This document shows, in pieces, positions 2,051-64,000 of a DNA stretch of 64,000 bases (position 1 is its first letter; each line of letters opens with the position of its first letter). Made by a program: the position numbers and the translations under genes. Source of the stretch: Eledone cirrhosa. Lineage: Eukaryota. Under the pieces are notes generated by a model. That model searched no databases. It was not told the DNA's origin and worked only from the letters and a program-made list of their open reading frames with translations. The stretch spans positions 263,376,001 to 263,440,000 of the forward strand of contig OZ024743.1 in NCBI GenBank assembly GCA_964016885.1, read 5' to 3'.

Positions 2051-2242
2051 ATAATTGTTTCTACTTTTGGCACAAGGCCAGCAATAAACCAGTACATTAC
2101 TGGTACTTTATTTTATCGACCCCGTAAGGATGAAAGGCAAAGTTAACCTCGGCGGGATTTGAGCTCAGATCATAAAGGGACGTAACTCTATGCTTCAAAG
2201 CATTGTGTCTGACTCTCTATCGATACTGCCAATCCACCGCCT
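2051..2242 (-). mobile_element. tRNA-derived SINE, near full length
   Basis: Reverse complement starts ggcggtggattggcagtatcg (A box), then B box, core and the ...gtagaaacaatta tail. Confidence 0.9.
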
Positions 2243-2340
2243 ATAAGAAGTATAATGGTGGGCAGAATATATTGCAGTGACTGTGGTGTCTTCCACCTTC
2301 TCTAATATTTGTTTTAAGGATGGTTGGAATGTGGATGGTA

Positions 2341-5300
2341 GTTGGGTGGCGGTAGTGATGTGTGTGAGATATACAACGTAGGGTGGCGGTAGTGGTGTGT
2401 GTGAGATATACAACGTAGGGTGGCGGTAGTGATGTGTGTGAGATATGCAACGTAGGGTGGCGGTAGTGGTGTGTGTGAGGTATACAACGTAGCGTGGTGG
2501 TAGTGATGTGTGTGAGATATACAACGTAGGGTGGCGGTAGTGATGTGTGTGAGGTATACAACGTAGGGTGGCGGTAGTGGTGTGTGTGAGGTATACAACG
2601 TAGGGTGGCGGTAGTGGTGTGTGAAAGATATACAACGTAGGGTGGCGGTAGTGATGTGTGTGAGGTATACAACGTAGCGTGGTGGTAGTGATGTGTGTGA
2701 GATATACAACGTAGGGTGGCGGTAGTGATGTGTGTGAGGTATACAACGTAGGGTGGCGGTAGTGGTGTGTGTGAGGTATACAACGTAGGGTGGCGGTAGT
2801 GATGTGTGTGAGATATACAACGTAGGGTGGCGGTAGTGGTGTGTGTGAGATATACAACGTTGGGTGGCGGTAGTGGTGTGTGTGAGGTATACAACGTAGG
2901 GTGGCGGTAGTGGTGTCTGTGAGATATACAACGTTGGGTGGCGGTAGTGATGTGTGTGAGATATACAACGTAGGGTGGCGGTAGTGGTGTGTGTGAGATA
3001 TACAACGTAGGGTGGCGGTAGTGGTGTGTGTGAGATATACAACGTAGGGTGGCGGTAGTGGTGTGTGTGAGGTATACAACGGAGGGTGGCGGTAGTGGTG
3101 TGTGTGAGGTATACAACGTTGGGTGGCGGTAGTGATGTGTGTGAGATATACAACGTAGGGTGGTGGTAGTGGTGTGTGTGAGATATACAACGTAGGGTGG
3201 CGGTAGTGGTGTGTGTGAGATATACAACGTAGGGTGGCGGTAGTGGGGTGTGTGAGATATACAACGTAGGGTGGCGGTAGTGGTGTGTGTGAGGTATACA
3301 ACGTAGAGTGGCGGTAGTGATGTATGTGAGATATACAACGTAGGGTGGCGGTAGTGGTGTGTGAGAGATATGCAACGTAGGGTGGCGGTAGTGGGGTGTG
3401 TGAGATATACAACGTAGGGTGGCGGTAGTGGTGTGTGTGAGGTATACAACGTAGAGTGGCGGTAGTGATGTATGTGAGATATACAACGTAGGGTGGCGGT
3501 AGTGGTGTGTGAGAGATATGCAACGTAGGGTGGCGGTAGTGGTGTGTGTGAGGTATACAACGTAGGGTGGAGCTAGTGATGTATGTGAGATATACAACGT
3601 AGGGTGGTGGTAGTGATGTATGTGAGATATACAACGTAGGGTGGCGGTAGTGATGTGTGTGAGATATAAAACGTAGGGTGGCGGTAGTGATGTGTGTGAG
3701 ATATACAACGTAGGGTGGCGGTAGTGATGTGTGTGAGGTATACAACGTAGGGTGGCGATAGTGGTGTGTGTGAGGTATACAACGTAGGTTGGCGGTAGTG
3801 GTGTGTGTGAGATATAAAACGTTGGGTGGTGGTAGTGGTGTGTGTGAGATATACAACGTTGGGTGGTGGTAGTGGTGTGTGTGAGGTATACAACGTAGGC
3901 TGGCGGTAGTGGTGTGTGTGAGGTATACAATGTAGGGTGGCGGTAGTGATGTATGTGAGGTATACAACGTAGGGTGGTGGTAGTGGTGTGTGTGAGATAT
4001 ACAACGTAGGGTGGTGGTAGTGGTGTGTGTGAGATATACAACGTAGGGTGGTGGTAGTGGTGTGTGTGAGATATACAAAGTACGGTGGTGGTAGTGGTGT
4101 GTGTGAGGTATACAGCGTATGGTGGCGGTAGTGGTGTGTGTGAGGTATACAACGTAGGGTGGTGGTAGTGATGCGTGTTAGATATACAACGTAGGGTGGT
4201 GGTAGTGGTGTGTGTGAGGTATACAACGTAGGGTGGTGGTAGTGGTGTGTGTGAGGTATACAACGTAGGGTGGTGGTAGTGATGTATGTGAGATATACAA
4301 CGTAGGGTGGCGGTAGTGGTGTGTGTGAGGTATACAACGGAGGGTGGCGGTAGTGGTGTGTGTGAGATATACAACGTAGGGTGGCGGTAGTGATGTGTGT
4401 GAGATATACAACGTTGGGTGGCGGTAGTGGTGTGTGTGAGGTATACAACGTAGGGTGGCGGTAGTGGTGTGTGTGAGATATACAACGTTGGATGGCGGTA
4501 GTGATGTGTGTGAGATATACAACGTAGGGTGGCGGTAGTGATGTGTGTGAGATATACAACGTAGGATGGCGGTAGTGATGTGTGTGAGATATACAACGTT
4601 GGGTGGCGGTAGTGGTGTGTGTGAGGTATACAACGTAGGGTGGCGGTAGTGGTGTGTTTGAGATATACAACGTTGGGTGGCGGTAGTGGTGTGTGTGAGG
4701 TATACAACGTAGGGTGGCGGTAGTGGTGTGTGTGAGATATACAACGTTGGATGGCGGTAGTGATGTGTGTGAGATATACAACGTAGGGTGGCGGTAGTGA
4801 TGTGTGTGAGATATACAACGTAGGATGGCGGTAGTGATGTGTGTGAGATATACAACGTGGGTGGTGGTAGTGGTGTGTGTGAGATATACAACGTGGGTGG
4901 TGGTAGTGGTGTGTGTGAGATATACAACGTAGGGTGGTGGTAGTGGTGTGTGTGAGGTATACAACGTAGGGTGGCGGTAGTGATGTATGTGAGATATACA
5001 ACGTAGGGTTGCGGTAGTGATGTATGTGAGATATACAACGTAGCATGGTGGTAGTGATGTGTGTGAGATATACAACGTCGGGTGGCGGTAGTGATGTATG
5101 TGAGGTATACAACGTAGGGTGGCGGTAGTGGTGTGTGTGAGGTATACAACGTAGGGTGGCGGTAGTGATGTATGTGAGGTATACAACGTAGGGTGGCGGT
5201 AGTGGTGTGTGTGAGGTATACAACGTAGGGTGGTGCTAGTGGTGTGTGTGAGATATACAACGTTGGGTGGCGGTAGTGGTGTGTGTGAGATATACAACGT

Positions 5301-7476
5301 TGGGTGGTGGTAGTGGTGTGTGTGAGGTATACAACGTAGGGTGGCGGTAGTGGGGTGTGTGAGATATACAACGTAGGGTGGTGGTAGTGATGTGTGTGAG
5401 GTATACAACGTTGGATGGTGGTAGTGATGTGTGTGAGGTATACAACGTAGGGTGGCGGTAGTGGTGTGTGTGAGGTATACAACGTAGGGTGGCGATAGTG
5501 GTGTGTGTGAGATATACAACGTAGGGTGGTGGTAGTGGTGTGTGTGAGATATACAACGTAGGGTGGTGCTAGTGGTGTGTGTGAGATATACAACGTTGGG
5601 TGGCGGTAGTGGTGTGTGTGAGATATACAACGTTGGGTGGTGGTAGTGGTGTGTGTGAGGTATACAACGTAGGGTGGCGGTAGTGGTGTGTGTGAGGTAT
5701 ACAACGTAGGGTGGCGATAGTGGTGTGTGTGAGATATACAACGTTGGGTGGTGGTAGTGGTGTGTGTGAGGTATACAACGTAGGGTGGTGCTAGTGGTGT
5801 GTGTGAGATATACAACGTTGGGTGGCGGTAGTGGTGTGTGTGAGATATACAACGTTGGGTGGTGGTAGTGGTGTGTGTGAGGTATACAACGTAGGGTGGC
5901 GGTAGTGGGGTGTGTGAGATATACAACGTAGGGTGGTGGTAGTGATGTGTGTGATGTATACAACGTTGGATGGTGGTAGTGATGTGTGTGAGATATACAA
6001 CGTAGGGTGGCGGTAGTGGTGTGTGTGAGGTATACAACGTAGGGTGGCGGTAGTGATGTATGTGAGATGTACAACGTAGGGTGGCGGTAGTGGGGTGTGT
6101 GAGATATACAACGTAGGGTGGTGGTAGTGATGTGTGTGAGGTATACAACGTTGGATGGTGGTAGTGATGTGTGTGAGATATACAACGTAGGGTGGCGGTA
6201 GTGGTGTGTGTGAGGTATACAACGTAGGGTGGCGGTAGTGATGTATGTGAGATGTACAACGTAGGGGGGTGGTAGTGGCGTGTGTGAGATATAGAACGTT
6301 GGGTGGTGGTAGTGGTGTGTGTGAGGTATACAACGTAGGGTGGCGGTAGTGGTGTGTGTGAGGTATACAACGTAGGGTGGCGATAGTGGTGTGTGTGAGA
6401 TATACAACGTTGGGTGGTGGTAGTGGTGTGTGTGAGGTATACAATGTAGGGTGGTGCTAGTGGTGTGTGTGAGATATACAACGTTGGGTGGCGGTAGTGG
6501 TGTGTGTGAGATATACAACGTTGGGTGGTGGTAGTGGTGTGTGTGAGGTATACAACGTAGGGTGGCGGTAGTGGGGTGTGTGAGATATACAACGTTGGGT
6601 GGTGGTAGTGGTGTGTGTGAGGTATACAACGTAGGGTGGCGGTAGTGGGGTGTGTGAGATATACAACGTAGGGTGGTGGTAGTGATGTGTGTGAGGTATA
6701 CAACGTTGGATGGTGGTAGTGATGTGTGTGAGATATACAACGTAGGGTGGCGGTAGTGGTGTGTGTGAGGTATACAACGTAGGGTGGCGGTAGTGATGTA
6801 TGTGAGATGTACAACGTAGGGGGGTGGTAGTGGCGTGTGTGAGATATAGAACGTAGGGTGGTGGTAGTGGTGTGTGTGAGATATACAACGTAGGGTGGTG
6901 GTAGTGATGTGTGTGAGGTATACAACGTTGGATGGTGGTAGTGATGTGTGTGAGATATACAACGTTGGGTGGTGGTAGTGGTGTGTGTGAGGTATACAAC
7001 GTTGGGTGGTGGTAGTGGTGTGTGTGAGGTATACAACGTAGGGTGGCGGTAGTGGTGTGTGTGAGATATACAACGTTTGGTGGCGGTAGTGGTGTGTGTG
7101 AGATATACAACGTAGGGTGGTGCTAGTGGTGTGTGTGAGGTATACAACGTAGGGTGGCGGTAGTGGGGTGTGTGAGATATACAACGTTGGGTGGTGGTAG
7201 TGGTGTGTGTGAGGTATACAACGTAGGGTGGCGGTAGTGGGGTGTGTGAGATATACAACGTTGGGTGGTGGTAGTGGTGTGTGTGAGATATACAACGTAG
7301 GGTGGTGGTAGTGGTGTGTGTGAGATATACAACGTTGGGTGGTGGTAGTGGTGTGTGTGAGATATACAACGCAGGGTGGTGGTAGTGGTGTGTGTGAGAT
7401 ATACAACGTAGGGTGGTGGTAGTGATGTATGTGAGATATACAACGTAGGGTGGTGGTAGTGATGTGTGTGAGGTAT
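2341..7476. repeat. 37-bp minisatellite, about 139 units, consensus GGGTGGCGGTAGTGGTGTGTGTGAGATATACAACGTA
   Basis: Period 37 read directly (2381 to 2418). Only two 1-nt deletions seen (~4858, ~4894). The long minus-strand ORFs are the 37-aa (3-unit) translation. Confidence 0.98.
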
Positions 7477-8130
7477 TTAAAGTATATTTCCACTTTTCAT
7501 CTCTCTTCGTTAAATTGTAATATCCCGCCCCTACCGCTGCTTCATCTTCTTAATTTGTGGCATTTAGCTACAGCTCCGATTTCAAACAGAGACGGGGTTA
7601 TCTTATTATCTTTCAGCTTTCCAGGGTCGATAAAATAAAGTATCAGCTAAGTATTTAAAACGATTAATCGAAATACCCATCCTTCCAAAATTTCTGGTTT
7701 TGTGCCTATATTAGAAAATGTTATATAGGGCGGTTGACTAGCAGAATCAATAAAGCGAAGGACTAAAGACTTCGTGATATTTGTTACGGTTTTTAAAGTC
7801 CTGGCTTCAAATACGACAGAAGTCTATTTTTCATTTCATTCTTCCTGAGTTGATGAAATTAGTACAAGTTAATAAGCAAAAGGATAAGCCCTTCCAGGTT
7901 TAAAGTGACAAAGAAAGGCCGTATGCCACGACGTCACCTCTACGCCTTCACCGGGAGTTACGGCTCCATACATACATATCAGTTAAGTAACTGATACCGA
8001 CAAATTTAACTAATGCTTACACCAGAATGTATTGTTTTATGCCGGAATTAGAAAATATATTACTATTGTAATAATTTTGTAATTGGTCTTCTAGTTTACT
8101 TCAATTGTGCTTGTAGTTTTGAATATTAAA

Positions 8131-23590: not shown

Positions 23591-23626
23591 TCTTCTGATG
23601 AAGGACTAGCGTCCGAAACGTTAAGA
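23591..23626 (+). ncRNA. Minimal hammerhead ribozyme motif in a PLE-type 3' end followed by (CA)n
   Basis: tctt-CTGATGA-a-GGAC tagc GTCC-GAAA-CG-TT-aaga. A broken paralogue lies at ~29590-29680 (ttgatgaaggactaacgtcc). Confidence 0.8.
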
Positions 23627-35761: not shown

Positions 35762-35812
<51 letters not shown>

Positions 35813-35818
<6 letters not shown>

Positions 35819-36333
35819 TAAGTATGTACACGTACATACATATATGTATACAGACGTACAGTAGTATGTATATATATATATATACACAGATTGTTGAACG
35901 TATATACTTACCTTATGCATATTAACGGCTGAGTAGCCCAATTTGCACACACATATATATATGTATATATGCCGTTAATATGCATAAGGTAAGTATATAC
36001 GTTCAACAATCTGGCAGGAAGGTATACGTTGCTGACGATAGCTAATAAGCTTGAAACTAGTACAGCGTTCCTTTGTCAGTGTTGAACAAACGAGCAACGA
36101 TGGTTACTAGACTCTACGGCTTAATACGGGATGTTTGTTTAGAAACACACCGAGCATTATTATAAATGTTCGATGAATCCATACGTACATATATATATGG
36201 GTGCATGTATGTATATATATATACATACTACTGTACGTCGGTATACATATATGTATGTACGTGTACATACTTATATTTAAGTAACAGCCGTACTAAGAGT
36301 GGGAAATGAAATTTCGTTTCATTTTTTCCGTTT
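35813..36333 (+). mobile_element. HHR-bearing non-coding element (family F1) with nested inverted duplications, in (TA)n
   Basis: 35813-35886 is the reverse complement of ~36210-36278, and 35887-35929 of 35971-36013. 36063-36333 is homologous to 60175-60691. Confidence 0.85.
36026..36068 (+). ncRNA. Minimal hammerhead ribozyme
   Basis: acgttg-CTGACGA-t-AGCT aata AGCT-t-GAAA-CTAG-TA-cagcgt. Palindromic ACTAGT stem III; predicted cleavage after 36062. Confidence 0.85.
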
Positions 36334-36522
36334 ATATATATATATATATACGTAATACAATATGTTGAAAAGGTAACACACTAGAGCGAGATAGTGCGCC
36401 ATCAATAAAACAGGGAAAAACTACCAGTATATGGAATCTATAACCTATGAAAGGCAGGGTAGACACACGATAATTAAAAATATAAATTAAAGTGTATATA
36501 CATATCTTTATAACTATATAAC

Positions 36523-36603
36523 ACACACGTACAAATGCAAAGAGATCTGTTTCGCCAATAAGTTGTTGACAAATGAAATAGCCCATGGTTCATCAGCGTG
36601 TGT
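36523..36603 (-). ncRNA. Type I hammerhead ribozyme with full stem III
   Basis: Minus strand: acacacg-CTGATGA-acca...tggc-GAA-ACAGAT ctctttgc ATTTGT-A-cgtgtgt. 7-bp stem I, GUA triplet, imperfect stem II. Confidence 0.8.
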
Positions 36604-36738
36604 AAGGCTATACATTTCAGACAACTCTAAGAGAATTTAAAGCGACCGTCCAGCTACACGTGGGAGAGAGAAGTCACAGCGTGTTTAGGGCAGTGAACGA
36701 TGTCTGAGGGACGACTTCTTTCTCCCTCGTGTAGCTGG

Positions 36739-36821
36739 ACACACGCTGATGAACCATGGGCTATTTCATTTCTGTCAACAACTTATTGGCGAAACAGATC
36801 TCTTTGGATGTGTACGTGTGT
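36739..36821 (+). ncRNA. Type I hammerhead ribozyme, mirror copy
   Basis: acacacg-CTGATGA-...tggc-GAA-ACAGATC tctttg GATGTGT-A-cgtgtgt. Confidence 0.78.
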
Positions 36822-37066
36822 GTTATATAGTTATAGAGGTATGCATATACACTTTAATTTATATTTTTAATTATCGCGTGTCTACCCTGCCTTTCATAGG
36901 TTATATATTCCATACACTGGTGGTTTTTCCCTGTCTTATTGATGGCGCACTATCTCTCTCTAGTGTGTTACCTTTTCAACATATTCTATTTTAAAGAGCT
37001 CAGGATTCCTTCTCCTTTGAGCACACTATTGATAGCGAGAGTTTATGGCTCCGTTAATTTATCGTG

Positions 37067-48941: not shown

Positions 48942-49890
48942 AATTTCTTTATTAGCCACAAGGGCACAGAAGAAGGGGACAAATACAAATGGGGAGTTTA
49001 CATACAGGTATATGAAAATAAAACTATTAATAAAATAACAAATAACAATTGAAATCCCTAATAGAGGGGAGGCGTTACACAGGGGTTGTATACACCCCGA
49101 AAAAATGTACAACCCTCATCTCCAGCAGCACCAAAAGTGAGTACTCCCTTCCTCTCTTCCTCTTTTTCCTCAACCTACAGGCTTATATAGAGAGAAGGCC
49201 CAACCACTCAGGTCATCTTTGCCACATTCACACACCTTTTATAAAATTTGCTGGGGTACAGCACCTCTCTCTCCATCCTGATTCTTTCTCCAAAATGATA
49301 TTTGAAAAAACAAATCAGTTGCTCGCCGGAGAGAAAGGTGTCTGACCTCAACCCTTTTAACCTCGTCCACCATATAACCTCTTTCACCATGGCCATAACA
49401 CATAGCAAAACCGCCTCTCCCTCGTTTTTGAAGGAGGGTGGTGGTTTGATCATGACAATGGACTCGGTGGTCAACTGGATTGGTCCCACTCGCGACAATA
49501 GTCGTTCTACATAGCCCCACAGGTCGGTAACGCCCGGGTAGTGTACAAATGCGTGCGCGACGATTTCCTCGTCGCGCACGCATCTCGGACAGATCTTTTT
49601 CGAAGAGTCCCTACTCGGGCGCCCGTGTCTGTAGAGCTTGTCTCGAACAGGTAGAGCTGCTCGGTAGCACTGCCAGGCCAGAGACTTTTGGAAGTTGTCC
49701 ATTGGTTCCGGGTGGAAGGTCCTACCGAACAGACTGGCCAGTTCGTCCTTCTCTACGCCTAGAGTTTCTCCGAGCACGTCGTCGCACTTGCTGCGGATCA
49801 ACCCTCTATATAATGTCGAAGTGGAGTCTCCACTGATCGCCGGGTCCGTTTGCCAGAGGACTGTGAGCGCCTGAGCACATTCGATGTGCC
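48942..49890 (-). pseudogene. 5'-truncated L1/Tx1-clade LINE copy
   Basis: ORF 49208-49801 is homologous to the C-terminus of 50125-51276; bounded by agagagataaatagata on both sides. Confidence 0.92.
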
Positions 49891-50124
49891 AGAGAGATAA
49901 ATAGATATATTTCTTTATTTACCATAAAGGCATAAAAAGAAGGGACAAATACAAAGGGGGAGTTTACATACAATCGAGTAAAAAGGGTATAAAATGAAAA
50001 TAATCGAAAATAACCTCAAAAGGGAGGGGACGTGATGGGGGTTGCACACACCCCCGAAAAAGTGTGCAATCCTTTGCCCGGGGAGCACATGGAGAAGGTG
50101 CTCCCCTCTCCTTTACTTCTTTAC

Positions 50125-53100
50125 CTACAGGATGGTATACAGAGAAGGCCCATTTACACGAGCCATTCTCGCCACTATCACCCACCTTTCATAAAACTGC
50201 CTGTGGCCAAGCACCTCTCTCTCCATTCTTATCCTTCTTCCGAAGTGATATCGGAAGAAGTAGACCAGGCTATGGCCAGAGAGGCAGTTGCCTGACCTCA
50301 GACCTTTCAATCGTGTCCACCAAACAACCTCTTTCAACATGGCTATTACGCACAGAAAAACCGCCTTTGCTTCCTTTGTGAAGAGGGGAGGCGGTTTGAT
50401 TGTCATCACGGACTCGGCGGTCAACTGAATCGGCGCCACCCGCGACAGCAGTCGTTCGGCGTAGCCCCACAGATCAGCCACGCCCGGACATTGCACCAAT
50501 GCGTGCGCAACGGTTTCTTCGTGACGCACGCATCTAGGGCAAATCTTTTTTGAGGGATCCCTGCCCGGGCGCCCGTGTCTGTAGAGCCTCTCTCGTACGG
50601 GTAGAGCCCCTCGGTAGCACTGCCAGGCCAGTGACTTCTGGAAGTTGTCCATTGGTCCTGGGCCGAAAGTCCTACCGAACAGGCTGGCCAGTTCATCTTC
50701 TTCCATGTCCAGCGACTCTCCAAGGGTGTCATCGCCCCTGCTAGCCACCAGCCCTCTATAGAATGATGAGGTGGATTCTCCACCGATGGCCTCGCCCGCT
50801 TGCCAGAGAGCCCTGAGCGCCTGAGCACACTCAGTGTGCCAGTCTCCCAGTTTTCCGGATCTTTGCTTGACCCAGGACTGTAGCTCGGTGAGCGAGACGA
50901 GTCTCGGAAAGGCTCGTTTCACGAACGGAGCCCACACCGGTTGACCAGTGAGGAATACCTGTAGGTGCCGTAGCCTTAATGCGTGCCTACGCATCATGAA
51001 CCACGGCATCCCCAGCCCTCCTTTCGAAGGTTGTTGGCAGCAGATGGATCTTCTCACCATAGGAGGGCGTTTCTTCCAAAGAAATTGGAAGAGCACGCGT
51101 TCCATGGTGGTGAGTGTTTCCTTAGGGCAAGGCACGACAGTCAGGCGGTAGTAAGTGACGGACGCTATGTAAATGTTTGCCACCTCCGCCCGGCCTTTTA
51201 GGGACAGCTTACACTTGGCCCATTTCTGGGTTAGTGCAAACACCTTGTTCGTAACCTCGTTCCAGTTCTTTTCCACCTAGAGGTCCGGTACAAACCAGAC
51301 CCCAAGCAACTTTACCGGGCCCTCCGTCCAGTGTCCGACGACACCGTCGGGAGGCATCGGTCTGCCTCTCCACGTTCCGAGTTGCAGCCCGATGGATTTT
51401 TCCCGGTTCAGTTTTGCTCCTGACAACCTTTCGTAATCCTCCAGTAAGGTACCGATCGCCTCGATCTCCGAGTCGGTCGATGCCATTACTGTTACGTCAT
51501 CGGCGTAGGCCGACACCGCTTTGCTCAATCCTGGTTCCAGGGGGATACCCTGCAACAACTCCAACTTCCTCAGTAAAGGCTCCAGAGTCAATACGTACAG
51601 AAGGGAGGAGAGAGGGCACCCCTGTCGAATGGATCGTGTGATTTCGAACGGCTTCGAAAGGTAGCCGTTCACCTTGATCCTAGAACAGATGTGGTTGCTA
51701 TGTAAGGCAGTGATCCAGCCTCTGAAAACAGGACCGAACCCAGCCGCCGCTAGCACCGCATCCAGGTAACCATGGTCGACCCTATCGAAGGCCTTAGACT
51801 GATCCAAGTTGATCAGGGCCCCACCGAAGCCGGGTTTGTTGCCAACACTCTCTATGATGTATCGCATGAGGTGGAGGTTATCGTGAATGGACCTGGATGG
51901 GATAGCACATGTCTGCGCATCTCCCACCAGGCCACCCACGACAAGCGCCAACCTCTTTGCTAACACCTTGGCCAAAACCTTTAACTCTGTGTTTAGCAGG
52001 GTTATGGGCCGAAAATTATTTATACTATCTCCCTTGTTCTCGTCCTTCCTCACCAGCGTGACTACGCCCTTGGCTACAGAACAAGGAATTCTCCCGTTCT
52101 GCTGCCAATTGAAGTAGACCGCTTCGAGGAGTTCGGAGAAGAAGACCGGCATTGCTAAATAAAGTTCGTAAGGTATACCATCGAGACCTGGAGATTTGCG
52201 TCTGCTGCATTGGCTCAGCGCATCTTCGAATGACGCAGCCTTCGTGCTTTGCATCGAAAAACTGGTTCAAGGCCGTCCTCGATGCCAGCACTCTGGCCAC
52301 ATCTTCGCTCTTGATTGCCTCTTCTAATTTACCTGTTAATTCTTTCTCGTTTCTATTCCTATCGGCAGCTAACATCTTGCTATAACTTATTGATTCTGTT
52401 TTAATCTCTCTTTTGAGAGATGCCCACCATCGGTTGTTGACGATTGCACCCGTAAACCTCTCCTTAACTAATCTGCTAATCCGGTTTCTGTAAGTCTCTT
52501 TTGCCGGTAAAGACAAATTAAGTTTCCAGTAACCGGGACCCTGTTTATGTGTTTTCTCGAGATTAACTACGCAGGTCACTAATTTGTGATCCGTGTAGCC
52601 AACCGTGCGCATTTCTGGACAGCTTAATATGTCCCTATCCTTACTTCTAACTAAGAATCTATCTAAGTACGATCTAGATTGACCACTGTGGTTTCTCCAA
52701 GTCCAGGTAGGCACAGTTGGAACATCTAGTCGATATCTATCGACCAAGTTAAAACGGTCGAGTAACCCCTTGAGGCTGTTACACCCCCCTCTATTAGGAA
52801 ATGCTCCTACATAGTCCCAACGTGCATCTAGGATGTCATTCCAATCCCCCGCTAGAAGCAGGGAATGCGACGTTCCCAGAAAAGTCTCTAAACGCTGGAA
52901 GAAGTCGGGCCGTTCAGCTCCGAAAGGGGAGTAGACGGCGACCAGTCTTAAGGCTGCACCTTCACTACTGCCAACGTCTAGCACCAACAAACGACCCTCC
53001 GGGTCCGAGTGCACAACCTGTACGGCAAGACCCAGGTGTTTTTGCAGCAGTACGACAACCCCACCCTCACCCCCAGGTTGACAGAGAGATGCATGCACCT

Positions 53101-53235
53101 CAAAGTCATCGAAGGTAGGGGCCAGCTGCCGCACGACGCTGATCCGAGTCTCACAGATAACCATTATATTTATACCACATGACCTGAGGTCATTTAGAAG
53201 CTTTGCTTGCTTCCAAGTCGAGCCCAGGCCCGAAT
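50125..53235 (-). pseudogene. ORF2 (APE-RT-zinc finger) with a deletion/frameshift near 52225 and an in-frame TAG at 51277-51279
   Basis: HEGCVIR jumps directly to EDALSQCSRRKSPG in another frame; PDL*VEKNW shows the stop. Confidence 0.92.
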
Positions 53236-54392
53236 TCGTTGGGTTATCTTCAGTGTTGGAGGGAAGAGGTATGTTTGCTGGTAATGTTTCCGTCTTGGTT
53301 TTCTTTGTGGGGGAGATGGATGTCACTATGTTAGACTGTGTTGTGTGTTGTGTCTGCGGTGGTTGTGTTGTTTTATTGAGTGAGGGGTTGGGTGGGCCTA
53401 TATTTTGTTTTGGGGTAATGTGTTGTGACTGTTTGTGTTTTGGTGGTGGTGTAGTTTTACTGAGGGACGGGTTGGGTGGGACTGAGTTTTGTTGTTTGTT
53501 TATCTGTTGTGGTGGTGGTGGTGGAGCTGGTGTTGGTAGCAGGGTTTTCTTTTTGTTGAGTTGGAGACAAGCGGCCTTCAGGTGCCCTCTGCCTGCACAG
53601 ATATGACAGGATGGCCTTCTCCCCTCCACGCTAATGTTTATATACCCGTGGCCCTCTAATAAGATTCTGTCGGGTATTTGAGCGATGCGTTCAGGCTTCA
53701 TTTGCACTACCAGCTCTATACCTGTTCCACTGAACGCATTGCCTGTGGTTTTCTCAATGGAAATCCCGTTGTCATTCACTGGATCGATGAAGCCAGCTAT
53801 GAGCCAGCAGTAGTCCACATCTGGCATCATTGCATCCAGCCATATGCGTTGAGTTCTTTTACCCATATAAGATGGATAAAAGGTAAAATTTTTCAAACGA
53901 ATCGGTGACAAAGCACACTTTTTTGCCGCCGATTCGTTCTTCATGATAATTGCTAGGCTTCCATACAGTCTGTCTTTTCTTATGAAAGTGGTTTCATTAA
54001 GTACTTCTGTGAGTACTGTTTTGATATCTGCTTGAGAAGGCTGTTCAGGTTTTTTTGAAGTGTTGTTGATGGTGCGGAACACGACCGTTCGGCTTTCAAT
54101 GTCTTTGGTGAGTTCTTGAGGCATTTTAACCGATAAAATACCATTCTCTCCTTCACTTATGTATTGTTTGGCGTCTGTGATTCTTCGTGCCACATCTGAA
54201 ATATTTTCGGGTATATATGTCAAAGATTTCTTTGTTTTTTGTGCAATGAAATCTTGTTGACTCTGTCGTCTGCTTTGCTTTCTGTTATGTTGTTTTCAAA
54301 TGTTATTTTTGTGTTTGTTGTGTCTTTGTTTGTGGTATTAATATTGTCATGCAACTTTTCAAATTTGTTTTTTTCGTTGTTAGAATCCATGT
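53236..54392 (-). pseudogene. ORF1 (gag-like nucleic-acid-binding protein), frameshifted near 54220
   Basis: CX2CX4HX4C knuckle followed by a P/Q/T-rich tail; located upstream of the APE domain. Confidence 0.75.
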
Positions 54393-60123: not shown

Positions 60124-60174
<51 letters not shown>

Positions 60175-60179
<5 letters not shown>

Positions 60180-60687
60180 GGAATAGAATGAAACGAAATT
60201 TCATTTCTCACTCTTAATACGGCACTTTCTTAAATGTAAGTATGTATGTATGTAAACGTACATACATATATGTATACAGACGTACAGTAGTATGTATATA
60301 TATACATACATGCACACATATATATATATATATATGCACGTATCGGTTTACCGAACATTTATTATAATGCTCGGTTTGTTTGTTTGTAAACAAACAGCCC
60401 GAATTACGCTGTACAGTGTTTAGGCAACCACGTCACCTTTTTGTTGAACACCGGCACTGACACATCGTTCCTGTGTCAGTGTTGAACAAAAAGGTGACGT
60501 GATTGCCTAAACACTGTACGGCGTAATTCGGGCTGTTTGTTTGCTTACAAACAAACAAACCGAGCATTATAATAAATGTTCGGTAAACCGATACGTGCAT
60601 ATATATATATGTGTGCATGTATGTATATATATACATACTATTGCACGTCTGTATACATATATGTATGTACGTATACATACATACATA

Positions 60688-60691
<4 letters not shown>
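60175..60691. repeat. Fold-back palindrome of family F1 (~225-bp arms, 7-nt loop, ~60-nt tail) in (TA)n
   Basis: 60237-60464 is the reverse complement of 60472-60691; the right arm is homologous to 36063-36278. Confidence 0.93.
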
Positions 60692-60748
<57 letters not shown>

Positions 60749-62550: not shown

Positions 62551-62928
62551 ATATATATATATATATGTTATGGAATACTGTTAGCTTATCGCTAAAACAA
62601 TTTCTATACCTTTCATTTATATATATATATATATAAAAACAAATAACGAAACGAAATTAAATTTCGTTTCGTTTGTAACTCACTTTTGTATGACTGACGC
62701 TTAAACAATTAAGTTAAAAATGTACATCTACATATGCATACTGAAATACTAGTGTGTATATGAATACACACACGTATACATATGCAGATGTAACAAGTCT
62801 TTCACTGGTTGCTTTACTGTGAGCAACCCAGCTATTCTGTATGTAAACACACAGACAAACCGGTTTTTAGAGTCATACTGGTTTTCGAGGAAACACCTTC
62901 CCTCTATTCTCCAGAAAGCCAGACAAGG

Positions 62929-62973
62929 AATATTGAACTAGTTTCGTTGTTGTTACAACTCATCAGCAATATT
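62929..62973 (-). ncRNA. Intact minimal hammerhead ribozyme
   Basis: Minus strand: aatattg-CTGATGA-GTTGT aaca ACAAC-GAAA-CTAG-TT-caatatt. Confidence 0.93.
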
Positions 62974-63784
62974 TACCTATCTACCGGCCTTTCTGGAGAA
63001 TTGTAAAAGCACATATCGTTATATGCTTTTTCTATGAAAATTAGTAGTGGGCAGACTAATTTGCATAGAGTGTGAGTACGCACCGGTTCAGCGGAGACGA
63101 TAAAAACAAATAACGAAACGAAATTAAATTTCGTTTCGTTTGTAACTCACTTTTGTATGACTGACGCTTAAACAATTAAGTTAAAAATGTACATCTACAT
63201 ATGCATACTGAAATACTAGTGTGTATATGAATACACACACGTATACATATGCAGATGTAACAAGTCTTTCACTGGTTGCTTTACTGTGAGCAACCCAGCT
63301 ATTCTGTATGTAAACACACAGACAAACCGGTTTTTAGAGTCATACTGGTTTTCGAGGAAACACCTTGTCTGGCTTTCAGGAGAATAGAGGGAAGGTGTTT
63401 CCTCGAAAACCAGTATGACTCTAAAAACCGGTTTGTCTGTGTGTTTACATACATAATAGCTGGGTTGCTCACAGTAAAGCAACCAGTGAAAGACTTGTTA
63501 CATCTGCATATGTATACGTGTGTGTATTCATATACACACTAGTATTTCAGTATGCATATGTAGATGTACATTTTTAACTTAATTGTTTAAGCGTCAGTCA
63601 TACAAAAGTGAGTTACAAACGAAACGAAATTTAATTTCGTTTCGTTATTTGTTTTTATCGTCTCCGCTGAACCGGTGCGTACTCACACTCTATGCAAATT
63701 AGTCTGCCCACTACTAATTTTCATAGAAAAAGCATATAACGATATGTGCTTTTACAATTCTCCAGAAAAGCCGGTAGATAGGTA

Positions 63785-63829
63785 AATATTGCTGATGAGT
63801 TGTAACAACAACGAAACTAGTTCAATATT
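63785..63829 (+). ncRNA. Intact minimal hammerhead ribozyme, mirror copy
   Basis: aatattg-CTGATGA-GTTGT aaca ACAAC-GAAA-CTAG-TT-caatatt; predicted cleavage after 63822. Confidence 0.93.
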
Positions 63830-64000
63830 CCTTGTCTGGCTTTCTGGAGAATAGAGGGAAGGTGTTTCCTCGAAAACCAGTATGACTCTAAAAACCGGTT
63901 TGTCTGTGTGTTTACATACAGAATAGCTGGGTTGCTCACAGTAAAGCAACCAGTGAAAGACTTGTTACATCTGCATATGTATACGTGTGTGTATTCATAT

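Follow-up and report, generated by a model that had tools for sequence, protein, structure and literature searches.

Does the palindrome at positions 60174-60691 of this stretch of Eledone cirrhosa DNA (hereafter the window, 64,000 nt in full) record the self-cleavage of a hammerhead ribozyme in vivo? A sequence-only reading had mapped its apex exactly to the predicted cleavage site of a paralogue in the same window and proposed a genomic fossil, in which reverse transcription ran to the ribozyme-generated 5' end and folded back. Our analysis indicates that the apex more likely reflects a site at which DNA ends are preferentially joined than self-cutting of the RNA.

The palindrome is one head-to-head insertion of a repeat family, F1, in (TA)n. 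Monomer positions are numbered with +1 as the first base 3' of the predicted hammerhead cut, and the locus contains the following features.

60128..60176, no strand: left (TA)n target flank
60174..60450, minus strand: tailed F1 arm, monomer about +18 to +290, long 3' end class, 277 bp
60451..60454, no strand: CCGG junction insert
60455..60464, minus strand: 10-nt inverted copy of +10..+19, likely a snap-back, its last three bases ACA being a 3-nt microhomology
60463..60691, plus strand: tail-less F1 arm, +1 to about +227, short 3' end class
60465-60471, plus strand: unpaired loop, within the tail-less arm
60690..60746, no strand: right (TA)n target flank, target-site duplication not definable

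The apex is present as described earlier, with cactgacaca (60455-60464), tcgttcc (60465-60471) and tgtgtcagtg (60472-60481), and position 60463 does align with 36063, the base after the GUA at 36060-36062 of the paralogue. The claim that the apex maps exactly to the cut holds for the alignment but not for the exactness. The ACA at 60462-60464 represents -1..+2 of the right arm as well as the reverse complement of +10..+12, and because it is found in both arms the junction can be placed anywhere from -1 to +2. Similarly, the palindrome lacks hammerhead sequence upstream of the cut, as had been noted, except for the shared A at -1. The fold at the apex is not clean and consists of a 10-nt stem, then CCGG (60451-60454), then the long left arm from about +17/+18. 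The inverted arm at 60174..60450 holds a 63-nt tail absent from the other arm and is therefore not a fold-back copy. The two arms differ by ~4% and are no closer to each other than to the nearest other locus. No RT/GIY-YIG ORF was found between the pLTRs at the palindrome locus.

The paralogue carries the motif on which the predicted cut is based.

35805..36335, plus strand: paralogous F1 insertion, with inverted pieces at 35805-35882 and 35895-35947
35971-36335, plus strand: forward arm, passing through the cut and stopping at +290
36001-36087, plus strand: extended stem I of the motif
36026..36068, plus strand: predicted type I hammerhead motif with U.U at the stem II base and a palindromic stem III
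between 36062 and 36063, plus strand: predicted cut

The motif combines CUGACGA, GAAA, a palindromic stem III (ACUAGU) and stem I, with a fold z of -2.96. F1 possesses the CUGANGA, GAAA and UH core together with stems I, II and III, as in type I hammerheads. Core positions are each 95-100% identical in 287 F1 copies (the set recovered with no more than 12 mismatches over 56 nt) with N7 as the exception at 86%, and the double change in stem I of the paralogue is found again in 4 copies. F1 has no G10.1-C11.1 pair at the stem II base but U.U, or an extra U with A-U. The base of helix II in axolotl HHR_Amex2 likewise has U.U, and an axolotl hammerhead with this stem II base is reported to self-cleave, weakly in monomeric and more efficiently in dimeric form (PMC7229834). 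Rfam searches returned no match in the 64-kb window at the gathering score and no hammerhead match for F1 at E up to 10. Judged by its sequence, F1 is a type I hammerhead repeat with predicted self-cleavage. A long inverted repeat with 218-nt arms of 94% identity (36354-36990) adjoins the paralogue.

F1 is a repeat family with a copy number in the thousands. Its unit of 446 bp occurs in single, tandem and head-to-head copies, an exact 33-nt F1 motif gives 1,742 matches in the 3.0-Gb genome, and at least two subfamilies exist. The 3' ends are bimodal, with 163 of 421 anchored copies ending at +215..+245 and 141 at +280..+295, and most copies outside these two classes run on as tandem units. Nearly all of 50 displayed 3' ends are followed by TA or another simple repeat, corresponding to the microsatellite targets of Penelope-like insertions. 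The unit contains no ORF of note and forms tandem arrays. Likewise, animal non-LTR retrozymes consist of tandem non-coding units of 150-450 bp, each with a type I hammerhead, and have been proposed to be non-autonomous Penelope derivatives (PMC7229834; bioRxiv 10.64898/2026.07.22.740005). By sequence F1 fits a non-LTR retrozyme, with putative activity and putative linear and circular RNAs of the kind that retrozymes express, and it behaves like a non-autonomous Penelope-type insertion. One array (G000:C1:70055895-70076976) strings together dozens of F1 units in about 21 kb, shows a higher-order period and changes strand at its end.

A search for an autonomous F1 partner among the ORFs of the fetched loci identified none. 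Related RT-like ORF fragments often flank F1 insertions (L298:1890-3089 on the minus strand, L266, L143, L156 and L079). They contain a YRDD motif, their Atlas neighbours carry PF26215 in 38-93% of members, and hmmscan of the fragments gave no Pfam match. They are possible candidates for Penelope-like partners.

The self-cleavage model predicts a peak of F1 5' ends at C17+1, and this peak is absent in both samples of 5' ends that we collected. The first sample used a pattern for arms ending at -40 to +40, which gave 413 matches, and was taken from contigs C1-C3 and the first 51 Mb of C4 (199 loci and 206 arms, leaving out five segmental duplicates). Removal of 18 internal indels or direct jumps and 7 arms outside the range left 181 ends. 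Eight of these lie at -1..+2 compared with 6.8 expected (p 0.37), and 26 of 78 three-base intervals are as full as, or fuller than, -1..+2. A row that was dropped (L144), probably a -1 inversion, would raise the 8 to 9 if included. The second sample used a pattern for -13..+13 with 202 matches, from which 100 listed rows were read by eye; 16 were dropped (9 direct indels, 3 outside the range and 4 duplicates) and 84 kept, partially overlapping with the first sample. Among the matches listed, 7 of 84 ends lie at -1..+2 compared with 9.7 expected (p 0.86). The outermost base is +1 in 2/181 ends of the first sample and, among the matches listed, in 1/84 of the second, which represents no enrichment. 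Hand-picked loci (L159-L169) were kept out of all 5'-end counts.

Bigger piles of F1 ends than the one at the cut are found at +4, +10, +12 and -28, and 24 of 30 unselected copies pass through the cut. Ends of the first sample lie more often downstream of the cut (109) than upstream (72; p 0.007 against 0.5, uncorrected for attrition); the second has 45 downstream and 39 upstream among the matches listed. The downstream stretch is the 3' strand of extended stem I, where stalling could occur. In R2, the HDV-like ribozyme cut can reportedly set genomic 5' junctions, and rare snap-back junctions have been described (PMC3774820; PMC11331408). The cut reportedly corresponds to the precise 5' junction in Drosophila R2, whereas F1 copies mostly pass through it and their genomic 5' ends do not peak there.

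The +4 junctions (for example L350, L113 and L153) usually follow an A (ACGTT), account for 4/181 ends in the first sample and 7/84 among the matches listed in the second, and probably reflect CG microhomology. Three candidate observations were set aside. A similarity search was dropped for the end histograms because its query favours copies reaching +1, and an A/G mismatch between arms at +40 was dropped for query bias. An apparent excess of 39 matches in one search was dropped given a rough hand estimate of about 30; 6 of 20 loci fetched from those matches, chosen and not random, are full-length copies with local changes.

A second hammerhead family in the window, F2, served as a control.

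62633..64000, no strand: F2 head-to-head insertion, forward arm at the apex from +8
63774-63845: F2 hammerhead, predicted cut before 63823, Rfam Hammerhead_HH9 at E 8.7e-9, below the gathering score

None of 25 F2 ends lies at -1..+2 (29 matches, 27 distinct rows, 2 indel rows dropped). The F2 insertion (62633-64000; L170:1500-2060) is very young, with 609-nt arms of 100% identity, and combines a canonical G-C stem II base with a tailed and a tail-less end and an apex at +8 with 4-nt microhomology.

The apex of the palindrome itself is recurrent. We identified an identical apex at 8 independent loci (8 of 10 matches) on five contigs and in both subfamilies, with differing flanks and arm lengths. 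Five of the eight are clean palindromes. The other three (60174-60691, L370 and L371) show the apex as a 10-12 nt inverted insert, after which the sequence switches to a position elsewhere in the partner arm, as expected from a snap-back that was released. The loop lies on the tailed arm at six loci and on the tail-less arm at two (60174-60691 and L368). Among 39 local hairpin loci in the genome, a set excluding the 60174-60691 locus, this apex is the commonest product (5/39), followed by a self-palindromic AAGCTT junction (3/39), and inspection by eye found no exact match among the 39 for any of the remaining six 3-nt products of the reference unit. A microhomology-weighted null expects 1.0-1.3 apices compared with the 5 observed (p 0.003-0.009), with p 0.03 when the null covers any product with up to 3 nt. 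Since the null is built on the reference of one subfamily and on weights from 76 junctions, the excess is considered modest. The apex uses a native 3-nt microhomology at -1..+2 that includes the A upstream of the cut, and cleavage is consequently not needed to explain it. The excess is confined to the apex product and other +1 junction types are not enriched, which favours a sequence-driven joining site. A Fisher test of snap-back inserts (3/39 vs 1/175, p 0.02) was set aside as detection differed between the two sets.

An alternative that we regard as unlikely is that the eight-fold apex represents a true in vivo cleavage fossil. Most templates would be circular or uncut and a few would be linear, hammerhead-cut RNAs, on which run-off cDNAs ending at +1 would snap back on CA/TG and be channelled into this one junction. 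The long arm would come from a second priming, with a dimeric Penelope enzyme that initiates at each end of the tail. Recurrence of the same apex in both subfamilies, its excess over the microhomology null, the downstream excess of ends in the first sample and the conserved catalytic core all agree with this, as does the self-cleavage reported in PMC7229834 for the axolotl hammerhead with the same U.U. However, +1 is rarely the outermost base, larger piles are present elsewhere, F2 has no peak at its cut, and the native A at -1 completes the microhomology although a cleaved RNA would be without it. The proposed self-cleavage fossil is partly supported: a 10-nt snap-back from -1..+2 fits the apex and recurs at 8 loci above the null, but there is no 5' peak at C17+1 and the long tailed arm is no fold-back copy. 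In vivo hammerhead cleavage is not demonstrated by the palindrome. Pure coincidence, with the apex as one random junction among thousands formed with no preference, would agree with the background total of ends at the cut and with the narrow basis of the null, but is highly improbable given eight identical apices and p 0.03 even for any product.

The pairing of arms bears on how such insertions are made. In the first sample 127 of 181 junctions are inversions, with an inverted 5'-truncated copy beside a forward copy as in Penelope-like insertions. Both outer ends could be classed in 82 of 125 distinct inversion junctions; in the 43 others an end is cut off, decayed or unaligned. 79 of the 82 head-to-head insertions pair one tailed with one tail-less arm, 3 have two tail-less arms and none has two tailed arms. 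The tail-less arm reaches further 5' in 44 of the 79 pairs and the tailed arm in 34, with one tie, so copying of one arm from the other is not the rule. The 5' ends of both arms fall within 20 nt of each other in 5/79 pairs. Of 58 tailed partner arms, 23 end within +225..+253, a short distance 3' of the +227 start, which is the pattern predicted if two extensions collided on one RNA. This interval is the strongest pile-up of F1 ends seen, and some arms stop one or two units further on. At 16 of 20 hairpin loci the arms are as close to each other as, or closer than, to any other locus, indicating that both were made at insertion from one source. Microhomology of 1-3 nt is found in 61 of 130 junction rows and inserts of at least 2 nt in 39.

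That a single cDNA reached a cleaved 5' end, folded back and copied itself into the whole palindrome, as the sequence-only reading had it, is scarcely tenable: private variants common to the arms of one locus and the six apex loci with the loop on the tailed arm, which could contain the other arm, agree with it, but in 44/79 pairs each arm has sequence missing from its partner, arms whose 5' ends lie within 20 nt of each other are rare, and at L368 and 60174-60691 the loop is on the tail-less arm with 63 nt extra in the other, contradicting the model at the latter locus unless recombination between the arms has since flipped the loop.

Probably, a Penelope-type enzyme carried out a two-armed insertion at both cut ends of (TA)n and the two cDNAs were joined tip to tip. 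Both target ends would be extended from the same source RNA, a multimeric or circular template without an obligatory end at the ribozyme cut, and the two cDNAs would start at +227 and +290, respectively. At 60174-60691 the +227 cDNA would have halted at -1..+2, paired with itself over 10 nt via the native ACA/TGT repeat, and then been released and joined to the +290 cDNA. The apex probably recurs mainly because the 3-nt repeat with its 7-nt loop is a favoured joining site and not an RNA end. Several elements are directly seen, namely the fixed arm ends (+227 and +290) with one of each paired, 5' ends spread along the unit, microhomology of 1-3 nt or short inserts, and the recurring apex. Overlapping arms would, as a requirement of the model, need strand displacement or more than one template unit. 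Against this explanation stand the apex excess that persists after microhomology weighting, the downstream excess in the first sample, the ~4% difference between the arms, the three loci with the apex as a short snap-back insert, and the search that identified no autonomous partner. In work on a purified Penelope-like protein, both strands were cut and extended, with starts at two sites bounding the tail; the protein is a predicted dimer and needs no hammerhead cleavage in vitro, and no RNA reads ended at the cut (PMC11167929).

The structure of F1 insertions resembles that described for endonuclease-bearing Penelope-like elements (PMC8557442, PMC3846280). Both show partial tandems, an adjacent inverted 5'-truncated copy, a tail at one end, (TA)n targets, palindromes at the inverted junction and a hammerhead in the repeat. 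Unlike those elements, F1 has no RT/GIY-YIG ORF, its tail is about 63 nt instead of 30-40, and the pairing of one tailed with one tail-less arm is counted here. Most F1 junctions are head-to-head, whereas the word 'inverted' is absent from the main text on animal retrozymes (PMC7229834). F1 insertions can also be compared with another two-primer process. In LINE-1 twin priming two target ends prime two cDNAs, which are joined head-to-head by microhomology. F1 differs in that both of its starts are at fixed sites and its arms often overlap by hundreds of bases.

At genome scale, the F1 data speak against a 5' end defined by cleavage, a result that fits circular or multimeric templates. The two-armed insertion structure was already known; the 79/82 pairing and the 23/58 stops make a two-primer origin of inverted pLTRs testable. 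A literature search covering the main text of mostly non-subscription papers found no mapping of Penelope or retrozyme 5' ends to the hammerhead cut. In the single Penelope-type system examined for the role of its hammerhead, cleavage was dispensable in vitro and no reads ended at the cut (PMC11167929).

The window contains further repeats. CUGANGA...GAAA motifs at 23595, 62454 and 62966 may represent additional hammerhead families. On the minus strand, 49208-54295 holds broken non-LTR retrotransposon ORFs in which endonuclease-like and RT-like segments were recognised by eye in the translation, and an array of 37-bp tandem units with at least 139 copies spans about 2200-7550.
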